Assembly: GCA_963835405.1 (NCBI GenBank)
Contig: CAWIFV010000013.1
Coordinates: forward strand, 78,271 to 142,270
Reading direction: 5' to 3'
Source: an uncultured Actinomycetota bacterium
Lineage (GTDB): Bacteria; Actinomycetota; Actinomycetes; JAFAQI01
Length of the DNA stretch: 64,000 bases
Below are positions 29,254 through 61,764 of the stretch, in pieces; position 1 is the first letter of the stretch; the number at the start of each line of letters is the position of its first letter. A program made the translations under genes and the position numbers. Under the pieces are notes generated by a model. That model was given only the letters and a program-made list of their open reading frames with translations, was not told where the DNA came from and made no database searches.

Positions 29254-29600
29254 GGCGCTTCCGCCCCCGTCGACTCGACGGGCTGGCGCGGGTCCCGGTC
29301 GGCGAGCTGGGTGAGTTCGTCGATGGCAACGGTGTGGCGCAGCCTGAACACGGACAGGACGATCGCGAGCCCGACCCCGACCTCGGCCGCCGCGATCACC
29401 ACGATGAACAGCGCGAACACCTGCCCGCCGTGCAGCGTGTCCTTGAACCAGGCGTCGAAGGCGACGAGGTCGAGATTGGCCGCGTTGAGCATCAGCTCGA
29501 CCGCCATCAGCACGGCCACTGCGTTGCGGCGGGCGAGCACGCCGTAGACGCCCACCCCGAAGAGCAGCGCCGACAGAGCGACGGCGAGGGACAGATGCAT
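29250..29600 (-). CDS. nuoK: NuoK (second set)
   Basis: ORF track. ...[24 protein letters not shown]... Confidence 0.85.
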
Positions 29601-30747: not shown

Positions 30748-30793
30748 CCGTCCACCTCACTGCGGGGGTACCGGCTCCGCCGGCTTCGCCGGA

Positions 30794-32855: not shown

Positions 32856-32926
32856 CGGCGCGGGGGCCAGCCGGCTCGCCGTCCCCAGGCCCTCGATCCG
32901 CACGTCGGTCGGGCCACGGCCGAGGC

Positions 32927-33298
32927 TCAGACCCACGTCAGCACGCCCTTCCGCCAGGCGTAGAGCAGGCCGACCGCGAGGAACCCGAGAAAGACGAACA
33001 TCTCCGCCAGCGACAGGGCGCCGTAACCGGGGAGGGCGAACACCGTCGCCCACGGGAAGAGGAAGACCGCGTCGACCGCGAAGACGACGTACAGGAAGGC
33101 GTAGACGTAGTAGCGGACCTGCGACTGCGACCAGTCGACCCCGACCGGGTCCACGCCCGACTCGTAGGTCAGCAGCTTCTCCGGCGTGGACCGCCAGGGG
33201 CGGAGCATCCGGTTGGCGCCCAGCCCGACCACGACGAACCCCACCCCGAGCACGCCCAGCAGGGCCACGAGGGCGTAGCCACCGAAGTACCCGCCCAC
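32927..33298 (-). CDS. nuoA: NuoA (second set)
   Basis: GTG start with a GAAGGGGA RBS. ...[29 protein letters not shown]...[22 protein letters not shown]. Confidence 0.7.
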
Positions 33299-33389
33299 GA
33301 TGTCCCCTTCGCCGGTGTGCAGATAGGGCCATTCGACCCTCCCGGGGGAGCCTATTGAACGTAGACTTGGCGGCAAGGAGGGGCTGCTA

Positions 33390-42834: not shown

Positions 42835-43515
42835 TCAGGCGTCGCTGCCGCTGTCGCCACTGGAGTCACCGCTGGTGTCGGTGACGGTGTCCTCGGAGTC
42901 GTCCTGCACGTCGTCGTCGCCGTCGTCGCTGACGTCGTCCGCGCCGTCACCGCCGTCCTCGACGTCGGCGCCCGCGCCGCCGTCGAGGGAATCCTCGCCC
43001 TCGTCGCCGTCGAGGGAGTCCTCGCCGTCGTCGCCCTGCAGGTCGTCGCTGCCGTGACCGCCGGACATCTGGTCGTCGCCGGCGCCGCCGCTCATGGTGT
43101 CGTCCCCACCGCCGCCGAACATGTCGTCGTTGTTGGCCCCGCCGTCCATGGTGTCGTCGCCGGCCCCGCCGTGCTCCACGTCGGCGCCACGACCGCCGTG
43201 GATGTCGTCGCTGCCGTCGCCGCCGAAGACGTGGTCGCTACCGGCGCCGCCGAAGACGACATCGTGCCCGCCTGAGCCGCAGATCAGGTCGTTGCCGCCG
43301 CGCGCACGGACCACGTGGCCGGCGGCCCGGATCTCGATGACGTCCCGGTGGGAGGTGCCGTGAACCACGGCCGGCGCATGTGCGCCGACCACCATCGTCG
43401 CCGCCTTGCCGTGGCAGGTGGGCGAACCGCTCGCAGCGCCGGCGGGCAAGGGGTTGTAGGCGAACAGGCTGATGGGCGCGGCCAGCGCGAGCGTGAGGAA
43501 GCGGGAACGTCGCAT
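42835..43515 (-). CDS. Secreted Ca2+-binding repeat protein (RTX / hemolysin-type GGxGxD beta-roll-like repeats) with a poly-Asp/Gly/Ser C-terminal tail
   Basis: Internal start MRRSRFLTLALAAPISLFAYNPLPAGAASG is a signal peptide. Repeats GGNDLICGSGGHDVVFGGAGSDHVFGGDGSDDIHGGRGADVEHGGAGDDTMDGGANNDDMFGGGGDDTMSGGAGDDQMSGGHGSDDLQGDDGED. Confidence 0.6.
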   Translation of the reverse strand: MRRSRFLTLALAAPISLFAYNPLPAGAASGSPTCHGKAATMVVGAHAPAVVHGTSHRDVIEIRAAGHVVRARGGNDLICGSGGHDVVFGGAGSDHVFGGDGSDDIHGGRGADVEHGGAGDDTMDGGANNDDMFGGGGDDTMSGGAGDDQMSGGHGSDDLQGDDGEDSLDGDEGEDSLDGGAGADVEDGGDGADDVSDDGDDDVQDDSEDTVTDTSGDSSGDSGSDA

Positions 43516-43585: not shown

Positions 43586-44578
43586 TCAGTCGCCGCGGCG
43601 TACGACGTAGTCGCAGAGCGACTCCAACGCGGCCCGGGCCGGGACGTCCGGGAGCGGCTCGAGCATCCCGCGGGCGTCGGCGGCCCAGGTCTGCACGACC
43701 CCGCGGGCCTCCTCCATGACGGGGTGTCGACGAAGGGCGGCGACCGCGTCGGCGAGTACACCGTCGTCCTCAGGTCACCCCCGAGCACTCGGAGGAGCTC
43801 CTCGTCGGACTTGCGTCGCGGCCCGCCGCAGGAGCAGCACCGGCAGGGTCGGGACGCCCTCGCGCAGGTCGGTGCCCGGCGTCTTTCCGGACGCTCCGGA
43901 CTCCGCGGTCGACGTCGAGCAGGTCGTCGGACAGCTGGAACGCGACGCCGATCCGCTCGCCGAACCGGGTGAGCACCTCGGTCGCCGACTCGTCGGCGCC
44001 GGACAGCATCGCGCCGAACCGGCCGGACGTGCCGATCAGCGACCCCGTCTTGTCGGCGACCACCTGCAGGTAGTGCTCCGACCGGGTCGTCGCCGTCCGC
44101 GGGCCCGACGGTCTCGCGGATCTGCCCCTGCACCAGCCGCTCGAAGGTGCGGGCCTGGATGCGGACCGCCTCGGGGCCGAGGTCGGCGAGGATGTCCGAG
44201 GCCCGGGCGAACAGGAAGTCGCCGGTGAGGATCGCGACGGTGTTGCCCCACCGCGCGTTCGCGCGAGGCCGCCCCGCGGCGCAGCGACGCCTCGTCCATG
44301 ACGTCGTCGTGGTAGAGCGTCGCGAGGTGGGTGAGCTCGACGACGACGGCGGCCGGGACCACGCCCGGGCGCCGAGGGTCGCCGAACTGCGCGGCCAGCA
44401 GCACGAGCAGCGGCCGGAACCGCTTGCCGCCGGCGTCCACGAGGTGCTGCGAGGTCTCGGTGACGAACGGGTAGTCGCTCTTCACCGAGTCGCGCAGCAG
44501 CGCCTCGACCGCGTCCAGGCCGGCCCGGATCGCCGCCTCCAGCGCCGGGATCGGCGAAGTCGAGCTCGCGGCGCGTCG
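43586..44578 (-). CDS. trans-Polyprenyl diphosphate synthase (GrcC1/HepT-like, menaquinone side chain); multiple frameshifts
   Basis: Fragments lie across three frames: ...VKSDYPFVTETSQHLVDAGGKRFRPLLVLLAAQFGDP...LTHLATLYHDDVMD (first DDxxD), ...RIGVAFQLSDDLLDV (second DDxxD), C-terminus ...CDYVVRRGD. Boundaries are approximate. Confidence 0.5.
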
Positions 44579-44579
44579 C

Positions 44580-46130
44580 CGGCGTCCTCATCGCACGAAC
44601 GGTACGGCGCGCGTCGGCCAGGTCGAGGACCGGCTGCGGGAACATGCCCAGCACCACGGTGACCGCGACCGCGAGGGCGAGCGCGGCGGCGGAGGCGAGC
44701 CGGGAGCAACGACGACCGGCCCGTCCGACCGACCGGCTCGTGGAAGAACATCATGCACGATGACGCGGACGTAGAAGAAGGCGGCCATCGCGCTCGAGCA
44801 TCGCGCCGACGATGACCAGCGGGGTGGCCCCGCCGCTGATACGCGGCCGAGAAGACGGCGAACTTGCCGGTGAACCCGCTGGTGAGCGGGATGCCGGCGA
44901 GCGCGAGCAGGAACAGCGCGAAGACGCCGGCGATGAGCGGGGAGCGCCGGCCGAGACCCGCCCACCGGGACAGGTGCGTGGCCTCGCCGTCGGGGTCGCG
45001 CACCAGGGTCAGGATGGCGAACGCGCCGACCGTCGTCAAGCCGTAGGCGAGCAGGTAGAACAGCGAGCCCGGACAGGCCGGCCGGTTCAGCGCGATGACC
45101 CCGACGAGGATGAAGCCGGCGTGCGCGACCGAGGAGTAGGCGAGCATCCGCTTGACGTCGGTCTGGGTGACCGCGAACAGCGAGCCGACCGACCATCGTG
45201 AGGATGGCGACGGCCCAGACGACCGGCCGCCAGTCCCAGCCCAGGCCGCCGAACGCGACGTAGAACACCCGCAGCAGCGCGCCGAAGGCGGCGACCTTGG
45301 TCGCCGCCGCCATGAGCGCGGTGATCGGCGTCGGCGCGCCCTGGTAGACGTCGGGGGTCCAGCAGTGGAACGGCGCGGCGCCGACCTTGAACAGCAGCCC
45401 GACCGCCGAGCAGCGCCAGGCCGAGGAAGAGCAGCGTGTCGCCGTGGGTGCCGGTGACCGCGGCGTCGTGGATGCCGCCGAGCGACACCGTGCCGGCGTA
45501 GCCGTAGAGCAGGGCCAGGCCGTAGAGGAAGAAGGCCGAGGAGAACGCGCCGAGCAGGAAGTACTTGACCGCCGCCTCCTGCGACAGCAGCCGGCGGCGC
45601 CGGGCCAGGCCGCACAGCAGGTAGAGCGGCAGCGACAGCACCTCGAGCGCCACGAACATGAGCAGCAGGTCGTTCGCCGCGGGGAAGAGCAGCATGCCCG
45701 CGACGGCGAACATCACCAGCGGGAAGACCTCGCTCTGGGCGCGGCCGGCGGCCGACATCTGCCCGCTCCGTCCGGCGAGCCCGGGCACCGCGGATGCCTG
45801 GGCGGCGAACGCGCCGCCGCCCCCTCCGGGCGACCGGTCCGCGACGAGCAGCACGCTGGCGACCGCGATGACCGCGATCGTGCCCTGGAGGAACAGCGTC
45901 GGGCCGTCGACGGCGATCGCGCCGCCGCCGTGACTGCTCGGTGCCGGCGAGGACGCAGACCGCGACGAGCGCGCCGACGAGGCCGGCCAGGCGAGAGGCC
46001 GAGCTGCGTCGGTCCACCGGCACCCGCGGGGCGCGAACGCCTCGACGAGGACGCCCACGAGCGCCGCGACGCACGACGATCAGCATCGGCAGCGAGCGCC
46101 GAGTAGGAGATCGAGGGCGCGGTGAAGTCG
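44580..46130 (-). CDS. nuoN: NADH-quinone oxidoreductase subunit N (main nuo operon); heavily frameshifted, boundaries approximate
   Basis: NuoN segments are scattered over all three minus frames (GVLVEAFAPRG..., ...FVALEVLSLPLYLLCGL..., MAAATKVAAFGALLRVFYVAFGGLGWDWRPVVWAVAILTMVG, ...IAGVFALFLLALAGIPLTSGFTGKFAVFSAAY, ...GMFPQPVLDLADA). At least 5 frame changes. Confidence 0.5.
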
Positions 46131-47729
46131 GCCGCGACGAGGGCGCCCGGCTCACCGGTGTCGTTCCCTCCGATGCGAGCCCTCGGCGATCGGACGGCCG
46201 CTTCGGGTCGCCGGACGGTCGGACGTCGGTGAAGCTGCTGCTTGCACCGCCGGGTTGATGACGTCGAGCAGCGGCTTCGGGTAGACGCCGAGCACGACGA
46301 TCACCGCCATCACCGGCGCGATCGACCCAGGCCTCGCGCACGGTCAGGTCACGCCATGCCCTCGACGCCCGTCGCGCAGCGGGCCGTGGATCGTGCGCTG
46401 GAACATGAGCAGCACGTAGACCGCGGCGAGGACGATGCCGAACGTCGCCACGACGGCGAACCAGCGGTGGAGGGTGAACGTGCCCGACCAGCACGAGGAA
46501 CTCGCTGACGAACGTGGACAGGCCGGGCAGCGACAGCGCGGACAGGCCGGCCAGCGAGGAACATCGCCGGCCAGCCACGGCGCGACCTTGGCTGACACCC
46601 GCCGAAGTCGTCGATGAGCCGGGAGCCGCGCCGGGTGGCGAGGAAGCCGACGAGCAGGAACAGCGCGCCGGTGGAGAAGCCGTGGTTGACCATGTAGAGC
46701 GTCGCGCCGGAACCGCCCTGGCTGGTGAAGGCGAAGACCCCGAGCGTGATGAAGCCGAAGTGCGAGACCGACGTGTAGGCGACCAGCCGCTTCAGGTCAC
46801 GCTGCCCGATCGCCAGCAGCGCGCCGTAGATGATCCCGACGACCGCTAGCGCCAGGACGTACGGCGCGAACGTCCGTGGACGCGTCCGGGAACAGCGGGA
46901 GGCAGAACCGCAGGAAGCCGAACGTGCCGACCTTGTCGAGCACGCCGACGAGCAGCACCGCCACCCCGGTCGGCGCCTCGGCCGCCGCGTCCGGCAGCCA
47001 GGTGTGGAACGGCCACAGCGGCGCCTTGATGGCGAAGGCGATGAAGAAGCCGAGGAACAGCGCGATCTGCTGCGTTGTGGGACATGTGCAGCTGCGTGGT
47101 CAGCGCCGTGTAGTCGAAGGTCGCGTGGCCCACCTGCTGGAGGCGACGACCGACGAGGCGCGATGACCGCGGCGAGCATGAGCAGGCCGCCGGCGAGGCT
47201 GTAGAGCAGGAACTTCATGGCGGCGTACGAGCGCCGCGGGCCCGCCGTAGGAACCGATCAGGAAGTAGATCGGGATGAGCATGGCCTCGAAGAGCACGTA
47301 GAACAGGAACACGTCGGTGGCCGCGAACACGCCGATCACGATCGTCTCGGTCGACGAGCATCAGCGCGAAGAACGTCTTCGCGCGCTGCGCGTCGTGCCG
47401 CCGTCCGCGTCGTGCCACGAGGCGAGGACGATGATCGGCATCAGCACGGCGGTCATGAGGATCAGGGCGAGCGCGATGCCGTCGACACCCACGCGCGTAG
47501 TTGGCGCCGAACTGCTTGATCCACGTCGTGGTCTGGGCGAACTGGAAGCGCGCGCCGCCGGACGTGGAAGACGCCGCCATGCGATGGCCCGGCGAGCACG
47601 AGCAGCGCGTGCCAGCGCGATCTGCTTGGCCAGGTCGCGGCCGCGGGCACGGACCAGAGGCGGCATGCCGACGAGCGGGATGGCGCCGAGGACGGTCGGC
47701 CAGGGAAGCGGTCGGGTCATCGCCGTCAC
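46130..47729 (-). CDS. nuoM: NADH-quinone oxidoreductase subunit M (main operon); heavily frameshifted, boundaries approximate
   Basis: N-terminus [19 protein letters not shown]...[11 protein letters not shown] (ORF 47361..47729). Middle [20 protein letters not shown] (ORF 46349..47218). Other pieces lie in other frames. Confidence 0.5.
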
Positions 47730-49670
47730 CCGACCCGCACGAGCAGCAGCGCGGCGACCAGGGCGACGGCGCCTACCAGCATCGACAGCGCGTAGGAGCG
47801 GACGAACCCGGTCTGCTCCGCCGGGCCCGCGCGGACGACCCGCCGACGAGCGCGGCGAGCCCGTTGACGCCGCCGTCGACGCCGCGGCCGTCGAAGAAGA
47901 CCAGCGCGCGGGTGAGGTACTGGCCGGGCCGCATGAACACCGACTCGTTCACCGCGTCGCCGTAGAGGTCGGCCGGGCGGCGACGGTCAGCGGGGTGACG
48001 TCGAGCGGCGCTCGACCGGCACCGGCCGCGGCCGTACAGCCACGCGGCCGCGACGACGCCGCCGACCAGCACGAGCAGCGTGATCAGCGCCGAGCACGAG
48101 CGGGGAGATGGTGTGCACGCCGGCCTCCTCGGACGGCCCGACGGCCGGCGCGAGGAAGTGCTGCAGCGCGCCGCCCAGCACGAGCAGGCCGCCCGCGACG
48201 GCCGAGCCGATCGCCAGCACGATCATCGGCGCGGTCATGACCGACGGGCACTCGTGCGGGGTGCGCGTCCTTCGGCCCAGCGGCGGTTGCCGAAGAACGT
48301 CATGAGCATCAGCCGGGTCATGTAGAAGGCGGTGATGCCGGCGCCGACGAGCGCGACGGCCCGAGCACGTAGCCGGACGTGCCGCCCTTGTCGAACGCCG
48401 CCTCGATGATCTTGTCCTTGCGACAGAAGCCGGCGAACCCGGGGAAGCCGATGATCGCGAGGTAGCCGGCGGCGAACGTCAGGAAGGTCCACGGCATGAC
48501 GGTGCGCAGGCCGCCGTACCGGCGCATGTCGACCTCGTCGTTCATGGCGTGCATCACCGATCCGGCGCCGAGGAACATGTTGGCCTTGAAGAAGCCGTGG
48601 GTGAGCAGGTGCAGGATGCCGATCGCGTAGGCGCCCGGGCCGAGCCCGACCGCGAGCATCATGTAGCCGATCTGGCTCATCGTGGAGGCGGCGAGCACCT
48701 TCTTGATGTCGTCGTACGCGCAGCCGATGATCGCGCCCATGAGCAGCGTGACGGCGCCGACGACCTCACCGCAGTCCGGGCGTCGACCGCGACGTCGAAG
48801 ATCGGGTGCGACCGGGCGATCAGGTAGACGCCGGCGGTCACCATCGTCGCGGCGTGGATGAGCGCCGACACCGGAGTCGGGCCCTCCATCGCGTCGAGGA
48901 GCCAGGACTGCAGCGGGACCTGGGCCGACTTGCCGCACGCGCCGAGCAGCAGCAGCAGCCCGATCGCGGTCATGGTGCCGGTGTGCGCCCCGCTCGAGCC
49001 GCGCCGTGAAGACGCCGGCGAACGACACCGTGCCGAACGTGGCGAACATCAGCATGATGCCGAGCGAGAGACCGAGGTCGCCGACGCGGTTGACGAGGAA
49101 CGCCTTCTTCGCGGCGGTCGCGGCCGAGGGCTTGTAGGCCAGAAGCCGATCAGCAGGTACGACGCCAGGCCGACGCCTTCCCAGCCGACGTACAGCGAGC
49201 AGGTAGTTGTCGCGCGAGCACGAGCAGCAGCATCGCCGCGACGAACAGGTTGAGCTTGCCGAAGAAGCGGCGGCGGTCCGGGTCGTGCTCCATGTAGCCG
49301 ATCGAGTAGACGTGGATCAGCGAGCCGACGCCGGTGATCAGCAGCACGAAGACCATGGACAGCGGGTCGATCAGCAGGCTGGCGTCGACGTGGAAGCCCG
49401 ACACCGGCATCCAGGAGAACAGGTGCTGGTCGAGTGACGGCGCTGCGCGCCGGCGCGGCCGGGCATCGCGAGGAACTCGGCGACGCCGATGACGAACGCG
49501 AGCAGCGGAGGCAGGCGCCGAGCAGGTGGCCCCAGGCGTTGGTCCGCCGGCCGCCGAGGAGCAGCACCGCGGCGCTGGCAGCCGGGAGCGCGACGAGCAG
49601 CCAGCTCAGGTGGAAAACACCGGTGACCGGGGCGTACGACCGGCGAAGCCTCGGCGAGAGCGGAGATCAT
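47725..49670 (-). CDS. nuoL: NADH-quinone oxidoreductase subunit L (main operon); heavily frameshifted, boundaries approximate
   Basis: N-terminus [11 protein letters not shown] (ORF 49371..49670). Then ...[16 protein letters not shown]...[19 protein letters not shown] (ORF 49049..49567). Then ...[36 protein letters not shown] (ORF 48677..48973). Others follow. Confidence 0.5.
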
Positions 49671-49678
49671 CCAGGTCC

Positions 49679-49978
49679 TCAGTACTTGAGCAGGTTGGCG
49701 TCGTCGACCGAGGCCGACCGGCGGGTGCGGAAGATGGTGATGATGATCGCCAGCCCGATGACCACCTCGGCCGCGGCGACCACCATGACGAAGAACGCGA
49801 TGATCTGGCCGTCGAGGTCACCGTTGATCCGGCTGAACGTGACGAGCGTCAGGTTGACCGCGTTGAGCATGAGCTCGACGCACATGAAGACGACGATGGC
49901 GTTGCGGCGGACGAGCACGCCGACGGCGCCGATCGTGAACAGCATCGCGGACAGGTACAGGTAGTAGTTGGCGCTCAC
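49679..49978 (-). CDS. nuoK: NADH-quinone oxidoreductase subunit K (main operon), intact
   Basis: ORF track, 99 aa. ...[28 protein letters not shown]... Confidence 0.85.
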
Positions 49979-50804
49979 TCCGAGCCCCCAGGGGTGTGGG
50001 GCAGCGCGCGGGCCACGTCAGGGGGACGGCGCTCCAGCTCCTCCTCGGTGACCGGTAGGTGCGGCCGCGCGGCCGACACCTGCAGGTGCTCCGGGACGCT
50101 GCCGGGCGCGAGGCCACCGTCGGGCAGCAGCGCGGGGGTGTCGACGGCGTCGTGGTCGGCGTAGACGCCGGGGCCGGGCAGCGGTGCGACTCCGGCCCCG
50201 CCGCGAGCGACCCGCTCGTGCATGCGCTCCCGCTGCGTCGGCCGGGGTTGACCCGCTCGCGGTGGGCGAGCACCATCGCCCCCAACCCCGCAGTGATGAG
50301 CAGGGCGCTGGTCGCCTCGAAGGCGAAGACATAGCGGCTGAACAGCAGCTCGGCGATCGCGACGACGTTGCCCTTGCCGTCCTCGGCGGCGGCCACGCCC
50401 TTCGGATGGAAGCTGCCGAGCGTCCCGGCGAGAGCGACGACGAGCAGCAGGGCGAAGCCGAGCCCGAGCACGACCGCGGCGACGCGCTGGCCGCGCAGCG
50501 TCTCGACCAGCGAGTCGGTGGAGTCGACGCCCACCAGCATGAGCACGAACAGGAACAGCATCAGGACGGCGCCGGTGTAGACGACGACCTGGACGACCGC
50601 GAGGAACGGCGCCTCCTCCGCGGTGTAGAACACCGCGAGGGACAGCATCACGACCGCGAGCAGCACGGCGGCGTGCACCGCGCTGCGGACGAGGACCATG
50701 CCGAGCGCCGCGGCGACGGCGACGGGCGCCAGGATCCAGAAGACCGCGGCCTCGTGGGTCGTCGCCTCGCCCGCCGCGAGGACGGCACCGTGGAGCGCGC
50801 TCAT
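49975..50804 (-). CDS. nuoJ: NADH-quinone oxidoreductase subunit J (main operon); 1 frameshift near 50260-50290
   Basis: ORF 49818..50804 carries N-terminal [39 protein letters not shown]... up to ...[11 protein letters not shown]. The C-terminus continues in the frame of ORF 49975... The span is 830 nt. Confidence 0.65.
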
Positions 50805-50809
50805 GCGGT

Positions 50810-51413
50810 CCCTTCGGGCAGCTCGGCCTCGGTGGCACCAGCCGACCCTCCTGCCCGGGGTCGCCGGGCACCGGGGTCACCCGACCACCGAGGTAGTAGT
50901 CCTTCTCGTCGTCGCCGAGCCGCATCGGGTGCGGCGGTGCCTCCATGCCCGGCAGCAGCGGGCGAGCAGCTGCTCCTTGGTGTAGATGAGGTCCTCGCGG
51001 CTGTCGTCGGCGAGCTCGTACTCGTTGCTCATCGTCAGGGCGCGCGTCGGGCAGGCCTCGATGCACAGCCCGCAGAAGATGCAGCGCAGGTAGTTGATCT
51101 GGTAGATGCGGCCGTACCGCTCCCCGGGCGAGTACCGCTCCTCCTCGGTGTTGTCGGCGCCCTCGACGTAGATCGCGTCGGCCGGGCAGGCCCAGGCGCA
51201 CAGCTCACAGCCGATGCACTTCTCCAGCCCGTCGGGGTGGCGGTTGAGCACGTGCCGGCCGTGGTAGCGCGGCGCGGTGGGCTGCTTCTCCTCCGGGTAC
51301 TGCTCCGTCACCGGCTTCTTGAACATCGTGGTGAACGTCACCCCGAAGCCGGCGATCGGGGCGAGCAAGTCGTGCAGCGCCCCGCGGGGCTTCGGCTCGC
51401 GTGGCTCAGTCAT
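50810..51413 (-). CDS. nuoI: NADH-quinone oxidoreductase subunit I (main operon); frameshift near the 3' end
   Basis: ORF 50877..51413 has two 4Fe-4S motifs ([24 protein letters not shown]). The conserved C-terminus ...[14 protein letters not shown] is in another frame. Confidence 0.65.
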
Positions 51414-52690
51414 GAGTCACCTCCATCGCCGCGCCGGTCCGGTCGGCCAGCACGGGTATCGGGTAGCCGCCCGGCCCGGGTTCGGCGTCGGCCGACCGCT
51501 CGGCCTCGACGACCTTGTTCTCCGTGAAGAACGACGCGAGCAGGACGATGACCGCGAGCGGGATTCCCACGTAGGCGAGAGTCTCGAACCGGGTGCGGCC
51601 CTCGTTGGTCAGCTCCCGGAAGGCGGCGACGATCAGCACCCAGACGAGGCTGGCCGGGATGAGGACCTTCCAGCCGAGAGCCATGAACTGGTCGTAGCGC
51701 AGCCGCGGGAGCGTGCCCCGCAGCCAGATGAAGAAGAAGAGCAGGAAGACAGCTTGCCGAGGAACCAGATCATCGGCCACCAGCCGGTGTTGGCGCCGTC
51801 GTCGACCGCCGACAGCGGCCACGGTGCGCGCCAGCCGCCGAGGAACAGCGTCGTCGCCAGCGCGGAGACGGTGGTCATGTTGATGTACTCGGCGAGGAAG
51901 AACATCGCGAACTTGATCGAGGAGTACTCGGTGTGGAACCCGGCGACGAGCTCGCTCTCGGCCTCGGGCAGGTCGAACGGCGCCCGGTTGGTCTCGCCCA
52001 CCATCGCGATCAGGTAGATGACGAACGACGGGATCAGCGGCAGCGCGTACCAGAGCTTCGCCTGCGCGCTCGACGATCTCGCTCGTCGACAGCGACCCGG
52101 AGTAGAGGAAGACCGCGGCCAGCGCGAGGCCCATCGCGACCTCGTAGGAGATGACCTGGGCCGCCGACCGCAGCCCGCCGAGCAGCGGGTAGGGCGACTG
52201 CAGGACCAGCCCGCGAGCACGATGCCGTAGACCCCGATGGCGGCCATCGCGAGGATGAACAGCACCGCGACCGGCAGGTCGGTGAGCTGCAGCGGGGTGC
52301 GTGACCGAAGATCGACACGACCGGCCCGAACGGGATGACCGCGAAGGACAGGAACGCCGGGATCGGTCGCGACCAGCGGCGCCAGGATGTAGAGCGGCTG
52401 GTCGGCCAGCGCCGGGATGAGGTCCTCCTTGAGCACGAGCTTGACGCCGTCGGCGAGACCCTGCACCATCCCGAACGGGCCGACCCGGTTGGGCCCGGGC
52501 CGTTGCTGCATCCGGCCGATGACCGGCGCTCGGCCCAGATCATCAGCACGTCGTCACCACCAGGAAGACGAAGATGACGACGGTCTTCAGGATGATCGAG
52601 CCACCACGGGTCCTGGTCGGAACAGCCCGAGGTGGGCGCCGCCGCTCGTGCGACGCCGCGAGCACCTCCCGTCACGGCCATCCCCGCCGC
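51406..52690 (-). CDS. nuoH: NADH-quinone oxidoreductase subunit H (main operon); 3 or more frameshifts, boundaries approximate
   Basis: ...DPWWL...MIWAERR (ORF 52034..53056). [25 protein letters not shown]...[23 protein letters not shown] (ORF 51633..52511). ...[25 protein letters not shown] (ORF 51406..52134). Confidence 0.55.
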
Positions 52691-55111
52691 TGATGCGGAC
52701 GAGCGACACCGGCCGTCACGCCCGAGCGCCGCGTGCACGTGCGAGCCCGGCGAGTACGTCGGGAGCCAGACGACCCGGTCGGGCAGGTCGGCGAGCACGC
52801 ACGGCAGCGTGATCGAGCCCCGCGCTCGGTGCTGACCGTGACGAGCGTCCCCCGCTCGACGCCGATCTCCTTGGCGGTCGTCTCCGCCAGGCGCGCCGGG
52901 CGGCCGCCGGGTGCCGGCGAGGTAGGGCTCGCTGCTCCTGCAGCCGGCCGTCGTCGAGCAGCAAGTGCCACGTCGCGAGGACCGCCTCGCCCGCCTGCGG
53001 ACTGCGGCGGCGCGACGGGAGCCTCCCCGGCGCCGCGGGGCGGACGCCGCCCGCACGCCCGAGCCGGCGGATCTCCTGCTGCACCGGGGCGGGGGTCGCC
53101 GTCACCCAGGTCGAACCCCATCTCGTCGGCGAGCAAGTCGAGCACCCGGCCGTCGGACAGGGCGCCGGTCGCCTCGAGGGTCGCGTCGAACGGGCGCGCG
53201 CGCCCCTCCCAGTCCAGGTAGGTGCCGGCCTTCTCGACCGCCGGCGCGACCGGGAGGACCACGTCGGCCCGGTCGGTGACCGCGGAGTCGCGGAGCTCGA
53301 GGCTGACGAGGAACGGGGCGTTGTCGATCGCGTCGAGGGCGAGCTGCGGGTCGGGGAGGTCGTCCGGGTCGACGCCGGCGACGACGAGCGCAAGCTCGCC
53401 GGCCGCGGCCGCGCGCAGGATCCCGACGGCGTCCCGGCCCGGTTCGGCCGGGGGCTCGGCGCCCCAGACGCCGCGACCTCCGCACGTGCCGCGGCGTCGG
53501 AGAGCGGGCGGCCGCCGGGCAGCAGCCCGGGGAGGCAGCCCGCCTCGACCGCACCGCGGTCGCCGGCCCGGCGTGGCACCCAGGCCAGCCGGGCGCCGGT
53601 CCGGCGGCCAGCCGGCGCCGCGCTGAGAGCGCCGGGGACGGTGGCGAGCCGCTCGCCGACGAGGATGACCGCGCCCGGCTTGGCGCAGCGCCTCGGCGGC
53701 GGCCGCGCCGGCGTCGTCGAGCCGGTCGTCTCCCGCCGCCAACGCGGCGAGCGATCTCGGGCTCGGTGCCGGGGGCGCTGCGCAGCAGCCGGCCGCCGAG
53801 CTTGCGCAGCCCGGCGGTGGCGAACGGCGCGATCCGAGAACACGCCGAGCGTGCCCGCCTGCACCGCCTTGCGCAGCCGCAGGAAGACGATCGGCGACTC
53901 CTCCTCCGGCTCGAAGCCCGGCGAGCAGCACGGCGGGTGCGTGCCTCGAGGTCGGCGTAGGTCGCCTCGAGGTAGCGGCCGGCGACGCGGGCGGCGAGGA
54001 AGTCCTGCTCCTCGACCGAGTGCGGTCGGGCGCGGAAGTCGACGTCGTTGGTGCCGAGCGACGACCCGGGCGAACTTGGCGTAGGCGTAGGCGTCCTCGA
54101 CGGTGAGCCGGCCACCGGTGAGGACGCCGACCCGGCCACGGCGGCGGCCAGACCGTCGGCCGCCCGCGCGAGCGCGTCGCTCCACGACGCCTCGACGAGG
54201 TAGCCGTCGTCGTCGCGGACCAGCGGGGTCGCGGAGCCGGTCCTTGGCGGTGGCGTACTGAACGCCCACCGGCCCTTGTCGCAGTTCCACTCCTCGTTGA
54301 CGGCGGGGTCGTCGCCGGCGAGCCGGCGCATCACCTTGCCGCGCCGCCAGTCGGTGCGCTGCTGGCAGCCGGACGAGCAGTGCTCGCAGACGCTCGGCGT
54401 GGACACGAGGTCGAACGGGCGGGCGCGGAAGCGGTACTGCGCACCGGTGAGGGCACCGACCGGACAGATCTGCACGGTGTTGCCGGAGAAGTAGGAGTCG
54501 AACGGCTCGTCGGTGTAGATCGCGACCTGCTCCAGGGCGCCGCGCTCGAACAGCTCGATGAACGGGTCACCGGCGATCTGCTGGGAGAACCGCGTGCAGC
54601 GGGCGCAGAGCACGCACCGCTCGCGGTCGAGCAGCACCTGGCAGGAGATCGCGATCGGCTTCTCGAAGGTGCGCTTCGGTCGTGGAAGCGCGACTCGCTC
54701 GGAGCCGTTGGTGAGGGTCTGGTTCTGCAGCGGGCACTCGCCGCCCTTGTCGCACATCGGGCAGTCGAGCGGGTGGTTGAGCAGCAGGAGCTCGAGGTTG
54801 CCGCGCTGCGCCTTCTCCGCGACCGGCGACGTGAGCTGGGTCTTGACCACCATGCCGTCGGTGACGGTCGTCGTGCACGACGGCGAGCGGCTTGCGCTGG
54901 CCCTCGACCTCGACGATGCACTGCCGGCAGGCACCGATCGGGTCGAGCAGCGGGTGGTCGCAGAAGCGCGGGATCTGGATGCCGAGCAGCTCGGCGGCCC
55001 GGATGACCAGCGTGCCCTTGGGCACGGCGGATCTCGACGCCGTCGATCGTGCACGTGACGGTCTCGACCGCGGCGTCCGCCGGACGGTTCGGAGGACGTG
55101 GGGCTCGTCAT
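52690..55111 (-). CDS. nuoG: NADH-quinone oxidoreductase subunit G (main operon); 4 or more frameshifts, boundaries approximate
   Basis: MTSPTSSEP start at 55111. ...[47 protein letters not shown] (ORF 54567..55292). ...[21 protein letters not shown]...VCEHCSSGC (ORF 53102..55111). C-terminus ...[26 protein letters not shown] in ORF 52034..53056. Confidence 0.55.
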
Positions 55112-55159
55112 CGGGACGCGCTCCGGCGGCGAAGAGGGTCGACGCCATCGGGTCGAACG

Positions 55160-56403
55160 GGCAGCCGCCCTGCTCGAAGTGCGCGACGTACTCGTCCTTG
55201 AAGTACTTCACCGACGACGTGATCGGGCTGGTCGCGCCGTCGCCGAGCGCGCAGAACGCCCGACCGAAGATGTTGTCGCAGGCGTCGAGCAACGTGTCGA
55301 TGTCCTGTCGCGTCGCCCTCGCCCTTCTCGAGCCGCTCGAGGATCTGCACCATCCAGTAGGTGCCTTCGCGGCACGGCGTGCACTTGCCGCACGACTCGT
55401 GCGCGTAGAACTCGGTCCAGCGCAGCACGGCCCGCACCACGCACGTCGTGTCGTCGAAGATCTGCAGCGCCTTGGTGCCGAGCATCGACCCGGCCGCGCC
55501 GATCGCCTCGTAGTCGAGGGGGACGTCGAGGTGCTCCGCGGTGAGGATCGGGGTCGACGAGCCGCCGGGCGTCCAGAACTTCAGCTCGTGGCCCTCCCGC
55601 ACACCGCCGGCGAGGTCGAGCAGCTCGCGCAGCGTGACGCCGAGCGGCGCCTCGTACTGGCCGGGACGCGTCACGTGGCCGGACAGCGAGTAGAGGGTGA
55701 ACCCGGGCGACTTCTCGGTGCCGAACGAGCGGAACCACTCGACGCCCTTGTCGACGATCGCCGGCACGCTCGCGATCGACTCCACGTTGTTGATGACCGT
55801 CGGGCTGGCGTAGAGGCCCTCGACGGCGGGGAACGGCGGGCGCAACCGCGGCTGGCCGCGGTAACCCTCGAGCGAGTCGAGCAGCGCGGTCTCCTCGCCG
55901 CAGATGTAGGCGCCGGCACCGGCGTGCACGACGACGTCGAGCGAGTAGCCGGTGCCGAGCACGCGCGGACCGAGGATGCCGGCCGCGTAGGCCTCCTTGA
56001 CGGCCGCCTGCAGCCGCCGGACGACGTGCAGCACCTCGCCGCGGACGTAGATGAACGCGAGGTTGGCGCGGATCGCGTACGACGAGATGACGACGCCCTC
56101 CAGCAGCACGTGCGGGCTGGCGAGCATGAGCGGAATGTCCTTGCAGGTGCCCGGCTCGGACTCGTCGGCGTTGACGACCAGGTAGTGCGGCTTGCCGTCG
56201 TCCTGCGGGATGAACCCCCACTTGTTCCCGGTGGGGAAGCCGGCTCCGCCCCGACCGCGCAGACCCGAGTCCTTCACCATCTGGATGACGGCGTCGGGCT
56301 CCATCGCCAGCGCCTTGCGCGCGCCTGCGTAGTCGCCGTAACCGTCGAGGGTCCACGGCCGCTCGTCGCCCCAGTTGGCCGACAGGACCGGCGTCAGGCT
56401 CAT
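55160..56403 (-). CDS. nuoF: NADH-quinone oxidoreductase subunit F (main operon); frameshift near 55330
   Basis: ORF 55108..56553 from [22 protein letters not shown] carries [13 protein letters not shown] and [13 protein letters not shown] motifs. The C-terminus ...[48 protein letters not shown] is in ORF 54567..55292. Confidence 0.65.
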
Positions 56404-57049
56404 TCCCCACCCCCGGCAGCAGCGTCCCGGCGGGCGCCAGCCGCAGCCCCTCGAGCGTGGCCGGACCCGCCGCGCCGCCTTCGTCCGCGCGGCCGTCGTA
56501 GAAGCCGGCGAGCACCCGCTCGGCCTCCCGCCACGTGCACACGCTGTCCGCACCGCGGGTGGGCTGCACGGGCCGGTCGGCCTGCAGGTCGTCGACGAGC
56601 ATCTTCGCCGACTCCGGGGTCTGGTTGTCGAAGAACTCCCAGTTGACCATCACCACCGGGGCGTAGTCGCAGGCCGCGTTGCACTCGACGTGCTCCAGCG
56701 ACACCTTGCCGTCCGACGTGACGCCGTTCTGGGCCTCGATGCCGAGGTGCTCCTTCAGCGTCTCGTAGATGACGTCGCCGCCCATGACGGCGCAGAGCGT
56801 GTTGGTGCAGACGCCGACGTGGTAGTCGCCCACCGGGCGGCGCTTGTACATCGTGTAGAAGGTCGCGACCGCGCCGACCTCGGCCTTGGTGAGGCCCAGC
56901 ATCTCCGCACAGAAACCGATGCCGGCCGGCGACACGTAGCCCTCCTCGCTCTGCACGAGGTGCAGCATCGGCAGCAGCGCCGAGCGGGGCCTGGGATAGC
57001 GACCCATCAGCTCGCGAGCGCGGGCGCGGGTCTCGTCACTGAACGCCAT
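56400..57049 (-). CDS. nuoE: NADH-quinone oxidoreductase subunit E (main operon); 3' end frame uncertain
   Basis: N-terminus of ORF 55208..57049: [40 protein letters not shown]...GVCTNTLCAVMGGD...CNAACDYAPVVMVNWEFFD. No in-frame stop before nuoF, so a frameshift near the 3' end is likely. Confidence 0.7.
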
Positions 57050-58404
57050 CAGCGGTCCACCCCACCCATGACGGGGTCGACGCTCGCGACGCTGGCGACG
57101 ACGTCGGAGACCATGCCGCCCTCGGTGAGAGCCGGCACCGCCTGCAGGTTGACGAACGACGGGTCGCGCACGTGCACGCGGTAGGGCCGGGTGCCGCCGT
57201 CGCTGACCACGTGGGCGACGAGCTCACCGCGCGGGGACTCCACCGGCACGTAGGCCTGCCCCGGCGGCACGCGGAACCCCTCCGTGACCAGCTTGAAGTG
57301 GTGGATCAGTGCCTCCATCGACTGGCCCATGATGTGGCGGATGTGGTCCAGGGAGTTGCCGAGCCCGTCCCCGCCGAGCGCGAGCTGCGCGGGCCAGGCG
57401 ATCTTCTTGTCGGCGATCATGATCGGGCCCGGCGCGAGCCGGTCGACCGCCTGCTCGATGATGCGCAGCGACTGGCGGATCTCGTTGATGCGCACCAGGT
57501 AGCGCGCGTAGTTGTCGCCCGCGGTCTCGGTGACGACGTCGAAGTCGTAGCTGTCGTAACCGCTGTAGGGCATCTCCTTGCGGATGTCCCAGGCGAGCCC
57601 GGAGGCGCGCAACAGCGGGCCGGTGACGCCGAGCTGGAGGCAGGCGCGCGTGTCGAGGAAGCCGACGTCCTTCAACCGCTTCAGCCAGATGGGGTTGGCC
57701 GACAGCATCGACTCGTACTCGTCGACCTTGCCGCGCATGTAGGGGACGAACTCGCGGATCCGGTCGACCGCGCCGGGCGGCAGGTCCTGCGCGAGCCCAC
57801 CCGGACGGATGTAGGCGTGGTTCATCCGCAGGCCGGTGATCATCTCGAGGATCTCGAGGATGCGCTCGCGCTCGCGGAAGCCGAACAGCATCATCGTGAC
57901 CGCGCCGACCTCCATGCCGCCGGTCGCGAGCCAGACCAGGTGGGAGGAGATGCGCTGCAGCTCCGACACGAGCACCCGGATGACCCGCACCCGCTCGGGG
58001 ATCTGGTCCTCGACGCCGAGCAGCCGCTCGACACCGAGGCAGTAGGTCAGCTCGTTGAACAGCGGCGAGAGGTAGTCGCACCTGGTGATGAACGTCACCG
58101 CCTGGGTCCAGGTGCGGTACTCCATGTTCTTCTCGATGCCGGTGTGCAGGTAGCCGATGACGACCCGGGTCCGCTCGACGGTCTCGCCCTCGAGCTCCAG
58201 CACCATCCGCAGCACGCCGTGGGTGGACGGGTGCTGCGGCCCCATGTTGACGACGATGCGCTCGCTCTCCAGCGGATCCACCGCGTTGACGATCTCGTCC
58301 CAGTCGCCGCCGCCGACGGTGAAGACCCGACCGCCCTCGTCCGCCGTCGTACTGCCGTAGGGGTCGCTCGCCGAGTACGTCGAGGTGTAGGTGGTCTCGC
58401 TCAT
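57049..58404 (-). CDS. nuoD: NADH-quinone oxidoreductase subunit D (main operon), intact
   Basis: ORF track, 451 aa. ...[22 protein letters not shown]... Confidence 0.9.
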
Positions 58405-58432
58405 AGGTCCTCCACCCCGTGGTGCCGCCGGC

Positions 58433-59212
58433 TCATGCGTATGACCTTCTGATGTCGGGCGGCGGGATCTGCGCGCCCTTGTACTCCACCGGTACGCCGC
58501 CGAGGGGGTAGTCCTTGCGCTGCGGGTGCCCCGGCCAGTCGTCGGGCATCTCGATCCGGGTGAGGGCCGGGTGGCCGTCGAAGACGATGCCGAAGAAGTC
58601 CCAGGTCTCCCGCTCGTGCCAGTTGGCCGTCGGGTAGACGTCGGTCACGCTCGGCACGTGCGGGTCGGCATCGGAGACCGAGACCTCGAGGCGCAGCCGA
58701 CGGCGGAACGACATCGACAGCAGGTGGTAGACGGCGTGCAGCCGGCGACCGGTGGGGTCGTTGGGATAGTCGACGCCGGACACCCCGCTGCAGTGCTCGA
58801 AGCGAAGCCCGGGGTCGTCGCGCAGCTGCCGGCAGATGTCGACGATCGCCTCGCGCCGCACGAACAACGTCAGCTCGCCCCGGTGCACGACCACGCGCTC
58901 GATGGCGTCGTGGAAGCCGGGGTAGGCCTGCTCCAGCGCATCCGTCGCCTCGTCGAACCAGCCGCCGTAGGGCCTGGGCGAGGACGCCAGCTGCGGCGGC
59001 CGGACGACGAGGCCACCGAAGCCGGACGTGTCACCGAACCCGCTGGCACCGAACATGTCGCTGCGCCGACCGCGCGCGACATCACTGGACGCGCCCACAC
59101 CCGCGGTGTCGCCGGAGGCGGTGTCGCCGGAGGCGGTGTCGCCGCCGGTGTCATCGGAGGCGGCTACGCCGCCGGTGTCATCGACGACGTCCGGACCCTC
59201 GGACTCGCTCAT
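58433..59212 (-). CDS. nuoC: NADH-quinone oxidoreductase subunit C (main operon), intact, with Asp/Gly/Thr-rich N-terminal extension
   Basis: ORF track, 259 aa. ...[42 protein letters not shown]. Confidence 0.9.
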
Positions 59213-60806
59213 ACGTCCTCCACCCCGCCCGGCACCCGAGGGCCGCGCCGGCTCACTGGTGCACCATCCTCAGGTCACTGGTCTCCGATGGATCGGTGAT
59301 GCGCCCCAGGTGCCGCCAGGTCATCGCCCTGCTCGCTTGACGCGGTTGATGTCCAGCATGAGATCTGCGAGATCTGGCGGTTACCCGGGACGTGCAGACC
59401 GTCGACAGGGCTGAGCGCCAAGGCCACGTGCCGCGAGCGCCGATCAGTGAGCGAACCGGCAGCCACGTTCCGGCACCACCGGCACCACAAGCGGGCGCCT
59501 CCCCACTGGGACTAGCAGCGAGGAGGCTGACGTGAAGTCTGCCAGCACAACCCTGCCCGAGACACCCCCCAACGACGTAACCGGCGGCCTGGACTGGTCC
59601 CGCGATGACCACGCAGTGTCGGTCGTGGATGCTCGCGGCCGTGAACTGCTGCGGCACACCGTCGAGCACAGCGCGGCCGGGCTGCGCGAGCTGATCGCGG
59701 TGCTCACCGATGCCGACTGTGAGGAAGTCGCCATCGAACGCCCGGACGGGCCGGTCGTCGACGCGCTGCTCGCCGCCGGGCTGACCGTGGTGGTGATCAG
59801 CCCGAACCAGGTCAAGAACCTGCGTGGCCGCTATGGCTCGGCCGGCAACAAGGACGACCGGTTCGACGCGTTCGTGCTCGCTGACACGCTGCGCACCGAC
59901 CGGGCCCGGCTTCGCCCGCTCACCCCGGACCGTCCGGAGACGGTGACGCTGCGCCGGCTGGGCCGGGCGCGCAAGGACCTCATCCGGCACCGCGTCGCCG
60001 CCGCCAACCAGCTGCGCGCCCACCTGCGCCTGGCGTTCCCCGGCGCGGTCGGCCTGTTCGCCGAGATCGACAGCCCGATCAGCCTGGCGTTTCTGACCCG
60101 CTTCCCCACCCAGGACAAGGCGGACTGGCTGACCCCGCAACGCCTCGGCGACTGGCTGGCTAAGCAGAGATACTCCGGCAAGGTCGACCCCGCAGTGCTG
60201 CACGCCCGACTGCTCGCCGCGCCACGCGGCCTCACCGGCACCGACGCCGCCGTCAACGCGCACATCACCGCGGCCCTGGCCGCGCTGCTGGCCAGCCTGC
60301 TCGAGCAGATCAAGGCCCTGTCCACACAAATCGGCACCCAGCTCGACGCGCACCTCGACGCGCACATCTTCATCAACCTGCCGCGCGCTGGCCGCGTGCG
60401 CGCCGCCCGGCTGCTCGGCGAGATCGGCGACTGCCGCGCCCGCTTCCCCACCCCCGAGTCGCTGACCTGCCTGGCCGGCGCCGCCCCCTCCACCAGGCAG
60501 TCCGGCAAGAGCCGCTCCGTCGGGTTCCGCTGGGCCTGCGACAAACAACTCCGAGACGCCGTCTGCGACTTCGCCGGCGACAGCCGACGCGCCAACCCAT
60601 GGGCCGACAAGCTCTACCGCGACGCCCGCGCCCGAGGACACGACCACCCGCACGCGGTCCGCGTCCTGGCCCGCGCTTGGCTCTACGTGATCTGGCACTG
60701 CTGGCAAGACAGCGTCGCCTACAACCCCAACAAGCACCGCGCCCTGCAACGCGTCCTCGCGGAGGAAAACAAGATCATTCCTCAGGCAGGTTGACACAGG
60801 GGCTTC
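59213..60806 (+). mobile_element. IS110-family insertion sequence (about 1.6 kb) between nuoC and nuoB of the main nuo operon, in the opposite orientation to the operon
   Basis: Bounded by the nuoC start (59212) and the nuoB stop (60807). Contains a single transposase gene with about 320 bp of 5' leader. No terminal inverted repeats, as expected for IS110. Exact ends not determined. Confidence 0.7.
59532..60794 (+). CDS. IS110-family (DEDD-type) transposase
   Basis: ORF track, 420 aa. N-terminal DEDD-like region GLDWSRDDHAVSVVDARGRELL. C-terminal transposase-20-like region ...LPRAGRVRAARLLGEIGDCRARFPTPESLTCLAGAAPSTRQSGKS... Confidence 0.85.
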   Translation: MKSASTTLPETPPNDVTGGLDWSRDDHAVSVVDARGRELLRHTVEHSAAGLRELIAVLTDADCEEVAIERPDGPVVDALLAAGLTVVVISPNQVKNLRGRYGSAGNKDDRFDAFVLADTLRTDRARLRPLTPDRPETVTLRRLGRARKDLIRHRVAAANQLRAHLRLAFPGAVGLFAEIDSPISLAFLTRFPTQDKADWLTPQRLGDWLAKQRYSGKVDPAVLHARLLAAPRGLTGTDAAVNAHITAALAALLASLLEQIKALSTQIGTQLDAHLDAHIFINLPRAGRVRAARLLGEIGDCRARFPTPESLTCLAGAAPSTRQSGKSRSVGFRWACDKQLRDAVCDFAGDSRRANPWADKLYRDARARGHDHPHAVRVLARAWLYVIWHCWQDSVAYNPNKHRALQRVLAEENKIIPQAG

Positions 60807-61409
60807 TCATGCCTGCTCTCCCGGAACAGGCGCGGGGAAGGTGAGCGGCGTGTCCACCGCGAGGCCCTGGGAGACGCGGGTGTCGCGCACGATCGGCTTC
60901 TCGTAGGGAGACTCCTCGAGCGTCGTCCAGGCGGGCTTGCCGTTGATGGGCGCGGCCTTGATCTTGTCGTGCAGCTTGAGGATGGCGTCGAGGAGCATCT
61001 CCGGCCGGGGCGGGCAGCCCGGCAGGTACATGTCCACGGGCACCACGTGGTCGACTCCCTGGACGACGGCGTAGTTGTTGAACATGCCACCGCTGCTGGC
61101 GCACACGCCCATGGCCAGCACCCACTTGGGCTCGGGCATCTGGTCGTAGATCTGGCGCAGGACCGGGGCCATCTTCTGCGACACCCGGCCGGCGACGATC
61201 ATCAGGTCGGCCTGGCGCGGGGTGGCGGAGAACCGCTCCATGCCGAACCGGGCGATGTCGAACCGCGGTCCGCCGACGGCCATCATCTCGATCGCGCAGC
61301 ACGCGAGGCCGAACTGTGCCGGCCACAGCGAGTTCTTCCGGGCGATGTTGAGCACCTTGGCGACCGTCGTCAGCAGGATGCCTTCGGGCAGCTTCTCCTC
61401 GAGACCCAT
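60807..61409 (-). CDS. nuoB: NADH-quinone oxidoreductase subunit B (main operon)
   Basis: Start [20 protein letters not shown]... [10 protein letters not shown]...[10 protein letters not shown]...[11 protein letters not shown]. The stop lies 13 nt from the IS transposase stop. Confidence 0.85.
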
Positions 61410-61413
61410 GGCG

Positions 61414-61764
61414 TCAGTCCCAGTCGAGGCCGCCGCGACGCCAGACATAGGCGTAGACGACGAAGACGGCGACGATGAACAGGATCATCTCGACCAGCCC
61501 GAACATGCCGAGCTTGTCGAACGCGACGGCCCACGGGTAGAGGAAGATGATCTCGATGTCGAAGACGATGAACAGCATCGCGGTGAGGTAGTACTTCACC
61601 GGCATGCGGTGGCCCTGGAACGCCTGGCGGGTGGGTTCGATGCCGCACTCGTAGGACTCGAGCTTCGCCCGGTTGAACCGCTTGGGACCGGTCAGGGCGC
61701 CCGCGACAACCGAGAAGACCGCGAAGCCGGCCCCGATGCCGAAGAGGACCAGGATGGGAACCAC
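61414..61764 (-). CDS. nuoA: NADH-quinone oxidoreductase subunit A (main operon)
   Basis: ORF track, 116 aa. [27 protein letters not shown]... Confidence 0.85.

Follow-up and report, generated by a model that had tools for sequence, protein, structure and literature searches.

A dense block of short indels across a complex I operon of an uncultured actinobacterium probably reflects poor local consensus rather than gene decay

The stretch of actinobacterial DNA analysed here (64,000 nucleotides, hereafter the window) contains a block of about 81 frameshifting indels at positions 43,772 to 55,308 of the minus strand (11.5 kb, about one per 145 nt), which covers most of the complex I (nuo) operon together with a polyprenyl synthase gene. 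The limits of the block come from aligning proteins of four intact related operons to the DNA in a frameshift-aware manner, and from spacing and Poisson tests. The initial annotation had noticed it and put it at 25 frameshifts or more; the block itself is real, but its lesions had been under-counted. Judging from the sequence, the block very probably represents a locally low-quality consensus in an indel-prone assembly, and not the loss of complex I, and the real nuo and synthase genes of the organism are most probably intact. Because the indels have the look of sequencing or assembly errors, the finding is an ordinary one.

By gene order and predicted domains, the locus is an ordinary nuoA-N operon for complex I, with 14 genes and a polyprenyl diphosphate synthase gene downstream. 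The fourteen subunit genes lie in canonical order and were matched to the called nuoA-N genes of two related loci, L081 and L084; look-ups of the exact NuoB, NuoC and NuoD proteins gave no entry, and the closest NuoJ among 5.8 billion proteins is 91% identical. All genes are on the minus strand, except that of an IS110-family transposase, located on the plus strand between nuoB and nuoC and outside the indel block (59,532-60,794), which was recognised by an N-terminal DEDD_Tnp_IS110 and a C-terminal Transposase_20 domain (E = 6e-36 and 8e-17, respectively). This element is absent from L081 and L084, where nuoB and nuoC abut, and the operon in the window appears to be interrupted by it. On one side of IS110, nuoB and nuoA (60,807-61,764) are intact, as are nuoE, nuoD and nuoC (56,438-59,212) downstream of it. 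Next comes nuoF (55,119-56,403), whose single frameshift at 55,305-55,308 (codon ~370 of 433) forms the upstream edge of the block; here the window reads GACGC[G]ACAGG and a relative GACGCACAGG.

Further downstream, nuoG (52,683-55,071) carries 18-20 frameshifts and nuoH (51,409-52,665) 8-10, followed by nuoI (50,809-51,413) and nuoJ (50,029-50,804) with one each, at 50,962 by alignment to the related operons and at ~50,251 by alignment to L081 and L084, respectively. The nuoK gene (49,682-49,978; 85-88% identity to L081/L084) is intact, whereas nuoL (47,729-49,660), nuoM (46,132-47,717) and nuoN (44,591-46,147) harbour 15-16, 15-16 and 16-17 frameshifts, and the synthase gene (43,586-44,575), which overlaps the nuoN stop codon by 4 nt in L081 and L084, has 5-6. 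The earlier statement that every long gene of this stretch needs multiple frame changes thus fails for nuoF, nuoI and nuoJ, and the accompanying remark that nuoK and nuoA-E are clean is borne out, since no frameshift was found in them by alignment. Once repaired, the proteins all display full-length Pfam domains: Fer2_4, NADH-G_4Fe-4S_3, Fer4_Nqo3 and Molybdopterin domains in NuoG, NADHdh (2-298/298) in NuoH, Proton_antipo_N (1-51/51) and Proton_antipo_M (1-289/294) in NuoL, Proton_antipo_M (1-293/294) in both NuoM and NuoN, and polyprenyl_synt (4-249/251) in the synthase.

The frameshifts were counted with a purpose-written frameshift-aware Smith-Waterman aligner (protein against DNA), using intact orthologues from L001, L020 and the closer L081 and L084 as references. 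Shift positions obtained with the four references coincide or lie only a few nucleotides apart; a handful of calls that are close together depend on the reference, for instance near 47.4-47.6 kb and 52.7 kb. Intact relatives at the orthologous loci comprise L001, L020, L081, L082 and L084 to L087. The density in the block amounts to ~7 frameshifts per kb, or ~0.7% single-base indels. The 81 events comprise 74 of ±1 nt and seven of ±2 nt; in-frame gaps are few. Insertions outnumber deletions by 49 to 32 (p = 0.07), and a gene-to-gene difference in the direction of error, which would hint at separate reads, was not significant (chi-square p = 0.16). Many shifts are flanked on both sides by perfectly conserved residues, as in VLADNYLL/LYVGWEGV and FFYVRVIV/MMFFHEPV, where the slash marks the shift. 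With regard to coding phase, a GC3 frame plot combined with a 7-state HMM showed that the minus-strand frame switches every 60-500 nt between ~43.6 and 55.3 kb, whereas the flanking genes form same-frame segments of at least 900 nt.

The distribution of the events is independent of genes, operon and selective units. Two dense stretches (43,772-49,661 and 51,748-55,308) are separated by a sparse island of ~2.1 kb (49.66-51.75 kb), in which two events were found against 14.6 expected (Poisson test, P = 5e-5). Upstream, the block edge falls within nuoF, and the region from 55,309 to 59,212, encompassing nuoE, nuoD, nuoC and most of nuoF, is devoid of events, while the block rate predicts 27.4 (P = 1.2e-12); at the other end, the block takes in the separate synthase gene. 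In the remaining ~52 kb of the window, 7-8 frameshifts were confirmed in unrelated genes, namely in Mce (2158 and 5478), MlaE (7885), an adenylate cyclase (~21711), nuoC2 (32065), AtuA (~39150) and an MFS gene (42513). This background of about one per 6-7 kb, and the resulting ~45-fold enrichment in the block, replace the figures of one per 4-5 kb and 15-fold given in the initial annotation. Suspected in-frame stops between NusG, L11 and L1 and between the ABC ATPase and MlaE turned out to be ordinary same-frame gene boundaries, and a suspected shift in the ribosomal protein L10 gene was dismissed since the Pfam domain is complete and a low-GC3 tail is found instead.

Errors concentrated in homopolymers are the classic signature of Nanopore, 454 and Ion Torrent sequencing, and homopolymer errors had been put forward as a cause of the block. 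Tabulation of run lengths does not sustain this: the mean longest run near the events is 2.33, versus 2.41 at random positions, revealing no homopolymer association; about 60% of the inserted bases are unlike the base on either side, and of the deletions two-thirds occur at a run length of 1. Since run lengths match the null and most indels lie at run length 1, the errors are not of the homopolymer type and look random. Searches of the sites for an enriched 3-mer or 4-mer, as expected of a methylation-type motif (GATC included), and for a slippery motif yielded none. In Mycobacterium smegmatis, 78.7% of natural small indels lie in simple repeats, and they are insertion-biased and mostly of 1 bp (PMC4938668). 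The insertion excess of the block resembles both this natural bias and PacBio CLR-type error and, as it fits two sources, the spectrum alone names no technology.

The lesions are very short indels, with neither nonsense mutations nor a large substitution excess. No true in-frame stop exists among the 3,727 repaired codons of the block, and GC3 is 0.969 there versus 0.961 in the clean nuoA-F genes. When substitutions were simulated at five times the indel count, ~8-9 stops were added; at ten times, ~15-18 stops were added and GC3 fell to 0.91-0.92. Mutation accumulation in M. smegmatis produced 856 substitutions versus 207 small indels (PMC4938668), a ratio of ~4:1. At ~4 substitutions per indel, ~6-7 new stops are expected by interpolation of the simulation, so that the chance of observing zero is ~0.002. 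Amino-acid branch lengths leading to the window, scaled by gene-specific divergence, showed no large excess in broken compared with clean genes; they leave room for a small excess of divergence in the block, up to ~2-3%, which may stem from undetected compensating pairs of shifts. The alignments, the stop count and the full-length Pfam domains all agree with the initial annotation that large deletions and nonsense codons are lacking and that motifs are retained.

It is highly improbable that the calls themselves are an artefact of the analysis, generated by misaligning divergent GC-rich sequence with open wrong frames, the genes being mostly intact as deposited. A hazard of this kind does exist: plain tblastn with the ORFs of the relatives was discarded, as its HSPs, at 40-57% identity, continued through wrong frames in this DNA of 72% GC, so that shifts were under-counted; besides, the few closely spaced calls mentioned above are reference-dependent. 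However, the independent GC3 phase signal switches at the same places, the four references agree, no single frame is open across the whole of any affected gene, and nucleotide comparisons reveal clean one-base differences inside otherwise identical 24-mers, for example at 44,755 and 54,261. Moreover, of 87 related loci (identities down to ~50%), 73 gave no frameshift call with the same aligner under a stricter penalty, compared with 69 calls in the window. All five control loci with at least two calls are MFD-type Nanopore MAG contigs, which also account for eight of the eleven loci with a call in a gene actually present (1-7 calls each). Among the remaining control loci, one call each came from two MAG contigs (platform unidentified), from two contigs that are short fragments and from L083, where the gene is absent; isolates had none. 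The MFD MAGs are Nanopore-only assemblies polished with one Medaka round (PMC12313526). Restoration of the frames by the cell, through programmed ribosomal frameshifting, transcriptional slippage or insertional RNA editing, has a practically negligible probability. The repaired genes are perfectly conserved, as expected if their products are still made, but each of ~81 sites, in both directions, would need correction, the sites share neither a slippery or homopolymeric motif nor a k-mer, and no site is common to any relative in the alignments or in the 87-locus control. To our knowledge, no such recoding system exists in bacteria at this density.

Genuine recent pseudogenisation is quite unlikely. 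It supposes that polarity of IS110 silenced the downstream operon and that, under relaxed selection, nuoF-N and the co-transcribed synthase gene became frameshifted, the organism then depending on the nuo2 operon or on other NADH dehydrogenases. The transposase inside the operon is a plausible trigger for such relaxed selection, the overlap of synthase and nuoN genes in relatives means that they could share a transcript, a second cluster (nuo2, nuoA2-N2, 24.4-33.3 kb) is nearly intact in the same window, and small indels that arise naturally in M. smegmatis, a related actinobacterium, are insertion-biased and mostly of 1 bp (PMC4938668). Yet nuoC, nuoD, nuoE and ~85% of nuoF, all downstream of IS110, bear no lesion where 27 would be expected, and neither the start of the block inside a gene nor its sparse 2-kb island has a selective rationale. 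Nonsense codons (some 6-7 expected), larger deletions and GC3 erosion are lacking, the indels are not tied to homopolymers, whereas ~79% of natural ones lie in simple repeats, and similar isolated frameshifts affect unrelated genes across the window. In other words, we found neither a mixture of nonsense, frameshift and deletion lesions with relaxed-selection substitutions, nor an extent that includes everything downstream of IS110. It is likewise very unlikely that the indels are real and that, after the IS110 insertion, the canonical complex I and the linked synthase are being destroyed by a local, almost purely indel, non-homopolymer mutational process; were this the case, the nuo2 cluster would encode the only complex I-like enzyme left.

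Local consensus error, which the initial annotation had already favoured over decay, accords with the restriction to short indels, the absence of stops, the preserved GC3, the disregard of gene boundaries and the intact relatives. Under this explanation, the deposited consensus between ~43.77 and 55.31 kb would be much poorer than its surroundings, with random single-base indels breaking the frames, and the most likely cause would be that reads were locally too few or in conflict at the consensus or polishing step of a noisy long-read-type assembly; low coverage, bridging by a single read or very few, and mixed strain variants in the metagenome are candidates. A raised background of isolated frameshifts is already present in the window as a whole. 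The practical consequence concerns automatic annotation, which would call nuoF-N and the apparently essential polyprenyl synthase gene pseudogenes, and complex I loss in an uncultured soil actinobacterium would be wrongly inferred from the annotated contig. Metabolic or pseudogene claims should await polishing of the contig and, probably, of the entire assembly. The IS110 copy between nuoB and nuoC represents the only possibly biological point nearby.

Compared with the nuoA-N operons of soil actinobacteria, the locus has the same gene order and subunit domains and likewise a polyprenyl synthase gene downstream, with 77-93% amino-acid identity to L081 depending on the gene; synteny extends to the geranylgeranyl reductase, MFS, acyl-CoA dehydrogenase and AtuA genes nearby. 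It differs by the IS110 copy that parts nuoB from nuoC, by a repeat-containing N-terminal extension of nuoC, and by an RTX-repeat protein that replaces a YbaK-like gene after the synthase. In real reductive decay, nonsense mutations occur together with deletions of many sizes and a raised level of substitution, and whole genes or operons are affected. The block recalls decay of the Mycobacterium leprae type in that interruptions affect many neighbouring genes of a single pathway, which are still recognisable, but it contains only 1-2-nt indels and no stops, its GC3 is unchanged and its edges lie inside genes. With respect to errors of long-read (Nanopore or PacBio CLR) assemblies, in which gene-fragmenting indels are documented (PMC12007338, PMC8442456), the block stands out by its ~7 events per kb over 11.5 kb, ~10 times the level in the most affected of the related contigs (7 per ~8.6 kb), and by errors that are not tied to homopolymers. 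In other respects the likeness is close: single-base indels split conserved genes into apparent pseudogenes, they occur sporadically along the contig and become worse where the consensus is weak (PMC12007338, PMC8442456, PMC12313526), and calls of the same kind are encountered in related Nanopore MAG contigs.

The window has a G+C content of 72% (actinobacterial DNA). Between 61.8 and 43.6 kb, its minus strand carries a canonical nuoA-N operon and, downstream of it, a polyprenyl diphosphate synthase gene. Because GC3 exceeds 95% in this genome, composition by itself shows which frame is coding. Both a sliding frame plot and a 7-state HMM revealed minus-strand frame changes every 60-500 nt between ~43.6 and 55.3 kb, the composition segments being gene-sized outside this stretch. 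Plain tblastn proved misleading for counting the shifts, since wrong frames remain open in GC-rich DNA, and a purpose-written program for local protein-to-DNA alignment, which models frameshifts as explicit states, was therefore used; it was checked on a synthetic case. The references were the operons of two GTDB MAGs labelled Mycobacteriales (L001 and L020, with NuoJ 77-80% identical to that of the window) and two JGI soil-metagenome contigs (L081 and L084, 88-89%). In all four, the nuoA-N genes are unbroken and tightly packed, and in L081 and L084 the synthase gene and the nuoN stop codon overlap by 4 nt. Among public sequences, the nearest relatives come from uncultured soil actinobacteria; no sequence from the same species was found in the searched collections, where the top NuoJ match has 91% identity.

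Alignment to both pairs of references gave 18-20 frameshifts in nuoG, 8-10 in nuoH, 15-16 each in nuoL and nuoM, 16-17 in nuoN and 5-6 in the synthase gene, with a single shift in nuoF (55,305-55,308), nuoI (50,962) and nuoJ (50,251). Event positions were identical or a few nucleotides apart across the four references, and the residues beside the shifts are often perfectly conserved. In the consensus list, 81 events span 43,772-55,305; their median spacing is 85 nt. The cluster from nuoF to the synthase is thus real, but the initial annotation, with 'at least 25' frameshifts, had underestimated it three-fold. As had been noted there for the short genes, nuoK and nuoA to nuoE carry no shift. 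The 'clean short genes' of that annotation are attributed to a 2.1-kb stretch of low density at 49.66-51.75 kb (2 events vs 14.6 expected, P = 5e-5).

With regard to their nature, 74 events are of ±1 nt and seven of ±2 nt, and no other sizes occur. Net frame changes are insertion-like in 49 cases and deletion-like in 32 (p = 0.07), a balance that does not differ significantly among genes. Homopolymer errors had been suggested as a source, but the sites do not lie near homopolymers, the longest run within ±5 nt averaging 2.33 vs 2.41 at random positions, and event sites show no enriched 3-mer or 4-mer. Where the 24-nt context was comparable to L081 or L084, ~60% of inserted bases were unlike both neighbours (for example, CGCGTCATCGTG[C]ATGATGTTCTTC in the window vs CGCGTCATCGTGATGATGTTCTTC in the relative), and two-thirds of deletions occurred at run length 1. 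This non-homopolymer spectrum fits classic Nanopore error poorly and is assignable to no platform, the technology being a matter of inference.

Once repaired, nuoG-N and the synthase gene contain no genuine stop in 3,727 codons; an apparent one at 52,716 occurs in one of two alignments only, in the poorly conserved NuoG C-terminus. GC3 after repair is 0.969, vs 0.961 in the clean nuoA-F genes. Pfam matches become full-length for NADHdh (2-298/298), Proton_antipo_M (1-289 to 1-293 of 294), polyprenyl_synt (4-249/251) and the NuoG cluster-binding domains. When three-point branch lengths were scaled by the L081-L084 divergence of each gene, the amino-acid divergence of the broken genes lay within the range of the clean ones, with an excess of at most ~2-3%, which could be explained by undetected compensating pairs of shifts.

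These features bear on whether the operon is decaying, in which case polarity of an IS110 insertion between nuoB and nuoC would have freed it from selection and let its nuo genes accumulate lesions. Such polarity would predict lesions in nuoC, nuoD, nuoE and nuoF as well, but the 3.9 kb at 55,309-59,212 contain no event vs 27.4 expected (P = 1.2e-12). The block, which has its upstream edge five-sixths of the way into nuoF, includes a clean island and extends into the synthase gene; it matches no selective unit. Real decay is also expected to bring substitutions alongside indels. Mutation-accumulation lines of Mycobacterium smegmatis yielded 856 substitutions vs 207 small indels, 78.7% of the latter in simple repeats (PMC4938668). 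Substitutions simulated on the repaired block produced ~8-9 new stop codons at 5 per indel, and 15-18, with GC3 down to 0.91-0.92, at 10 per indel; neither the added stops nor the lowered GC3 is present in the repaired block.

To assess the specificity of the calls, the same aligner was run with a more severe frameshift penalty on five genes (nuoG, H, L, M and N) in each of the 87 related loci fetched. There were 69 calls in the window, none in 73 of the 87 loci and 1-7 in a few, isolates and most other loci having zero. All five loci with at least two calls (L007, L019, L057, L002 and L074, 2-7 each) are contigs of MFD MAGs, as are eight of the 11 with a call in a gene actually present; the non-MFD calls were all single and came from short fragment contigs and two MAG contigs without identified platform. 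MFD MAGs were assembled with Flye from Nanopore reads only and polished by one Medaka round (PMC12313526), and indels that fragment genes are well recognised in long-read assemblies (PMC12007338, PMC8442456). The 2-7 calls of the five MFD contigs represent a useful base rate for indel errors of long-read MAGs.

Outside the block, shifts were recognised by Pfam profile coordinates running on across a frame change, in two Mce genes (2,158 and 5,478), MlaE/YrbE (7,885), adenylate cyclase (~21,711), nuoC2 (32,065), AtuA (~39,150) and an MFS transporter (42,513). The total of 7-8 events in ~52 kb is close to the initially proposed rate of about 1 per 4-5 kb, and the block is enriched ~45-fold over this observed background. 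These isolated single-base shifts in unrelated genes, several of them within short runs (GG to G, CCC to CCCC), suggest a general indel-error background of ~1 per 6-7 kb; the sequence of the whole window is indel-prone. The second, partial complex I-like cluster, nuo2 (nuoA2, B2, C2, H2, probable I2, J2, K2, L2, M2 and N2; 24,381-33,322, minus strand) is, as reported, intact except for the nuoC2 shift.

Taken together, the indel spectrum, absence of stops, GC3, extent, background shifts and MFD control indicate that the block is very probably a locally poor consensus, which probably stems from low or conflicting read support or from very few reads bridging the stretch. The artefact reading originally preferred is thus supported by 1-2-nt indels, the lack of stops, preserved GC3 and an extent unlike a selective unit, and the frameshift block is not a real biological feature.

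Other local features were noticed. In the adenylate cyclase gene (21,009-21,710), the Guanylate_cyc match ends at profile position 140/183, just before a stop codon at ~21,156-21,158 that possibly reflects a nonsense change or a substitution error; coding-like signal continues without change of frame at 21,012-21,086. A minus-strand ORF of 77 residues (19,867-20,097) matches only CysS_C, the C-terminal anticodon-binding domain of cysteinyl-tRNA ligase, and several GC3 frame changes lie between 19.87 and 20.1 kb. Perfect tandem repeats with 15-nt and 27-nt units in the 5' portion of the nuoC ORF (59,103-59,183) encode a (GDTAS)-like N-terminal extension of ~50 residues, which the relatives lack. 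Another repeat (63,184-63,277; 15-nt unit, 6.3 copies, 97% matches) forms the (GAVRP)n C-terminal tail of a UbiE/MenG-type methyltransferase ORF and, on the opposite strand, lies within an upstream extension of a geranylgeranyl reductase ORF.

The IS110-family element, within 59,212-60,807, carries a plus-strand transposase gene (59,532-60,794) with DEDD_Tnp_IS110 and Transposase_20 domains. Its insertion is independent of the frameshift block and could be genuine; if real, it would interrupt the complex I operon and matter for complex I expression. In L081 and L084, nuoB directly adjoins nuoC without IS110, whereas the element separates the two genes in the window. Both relatives harbour a YbaK/tRNA_edit gene downstream of the polyprenyl synthase, where the window has an RTX/HemolysinCabind-repeat protein gene (42,838-43,500).
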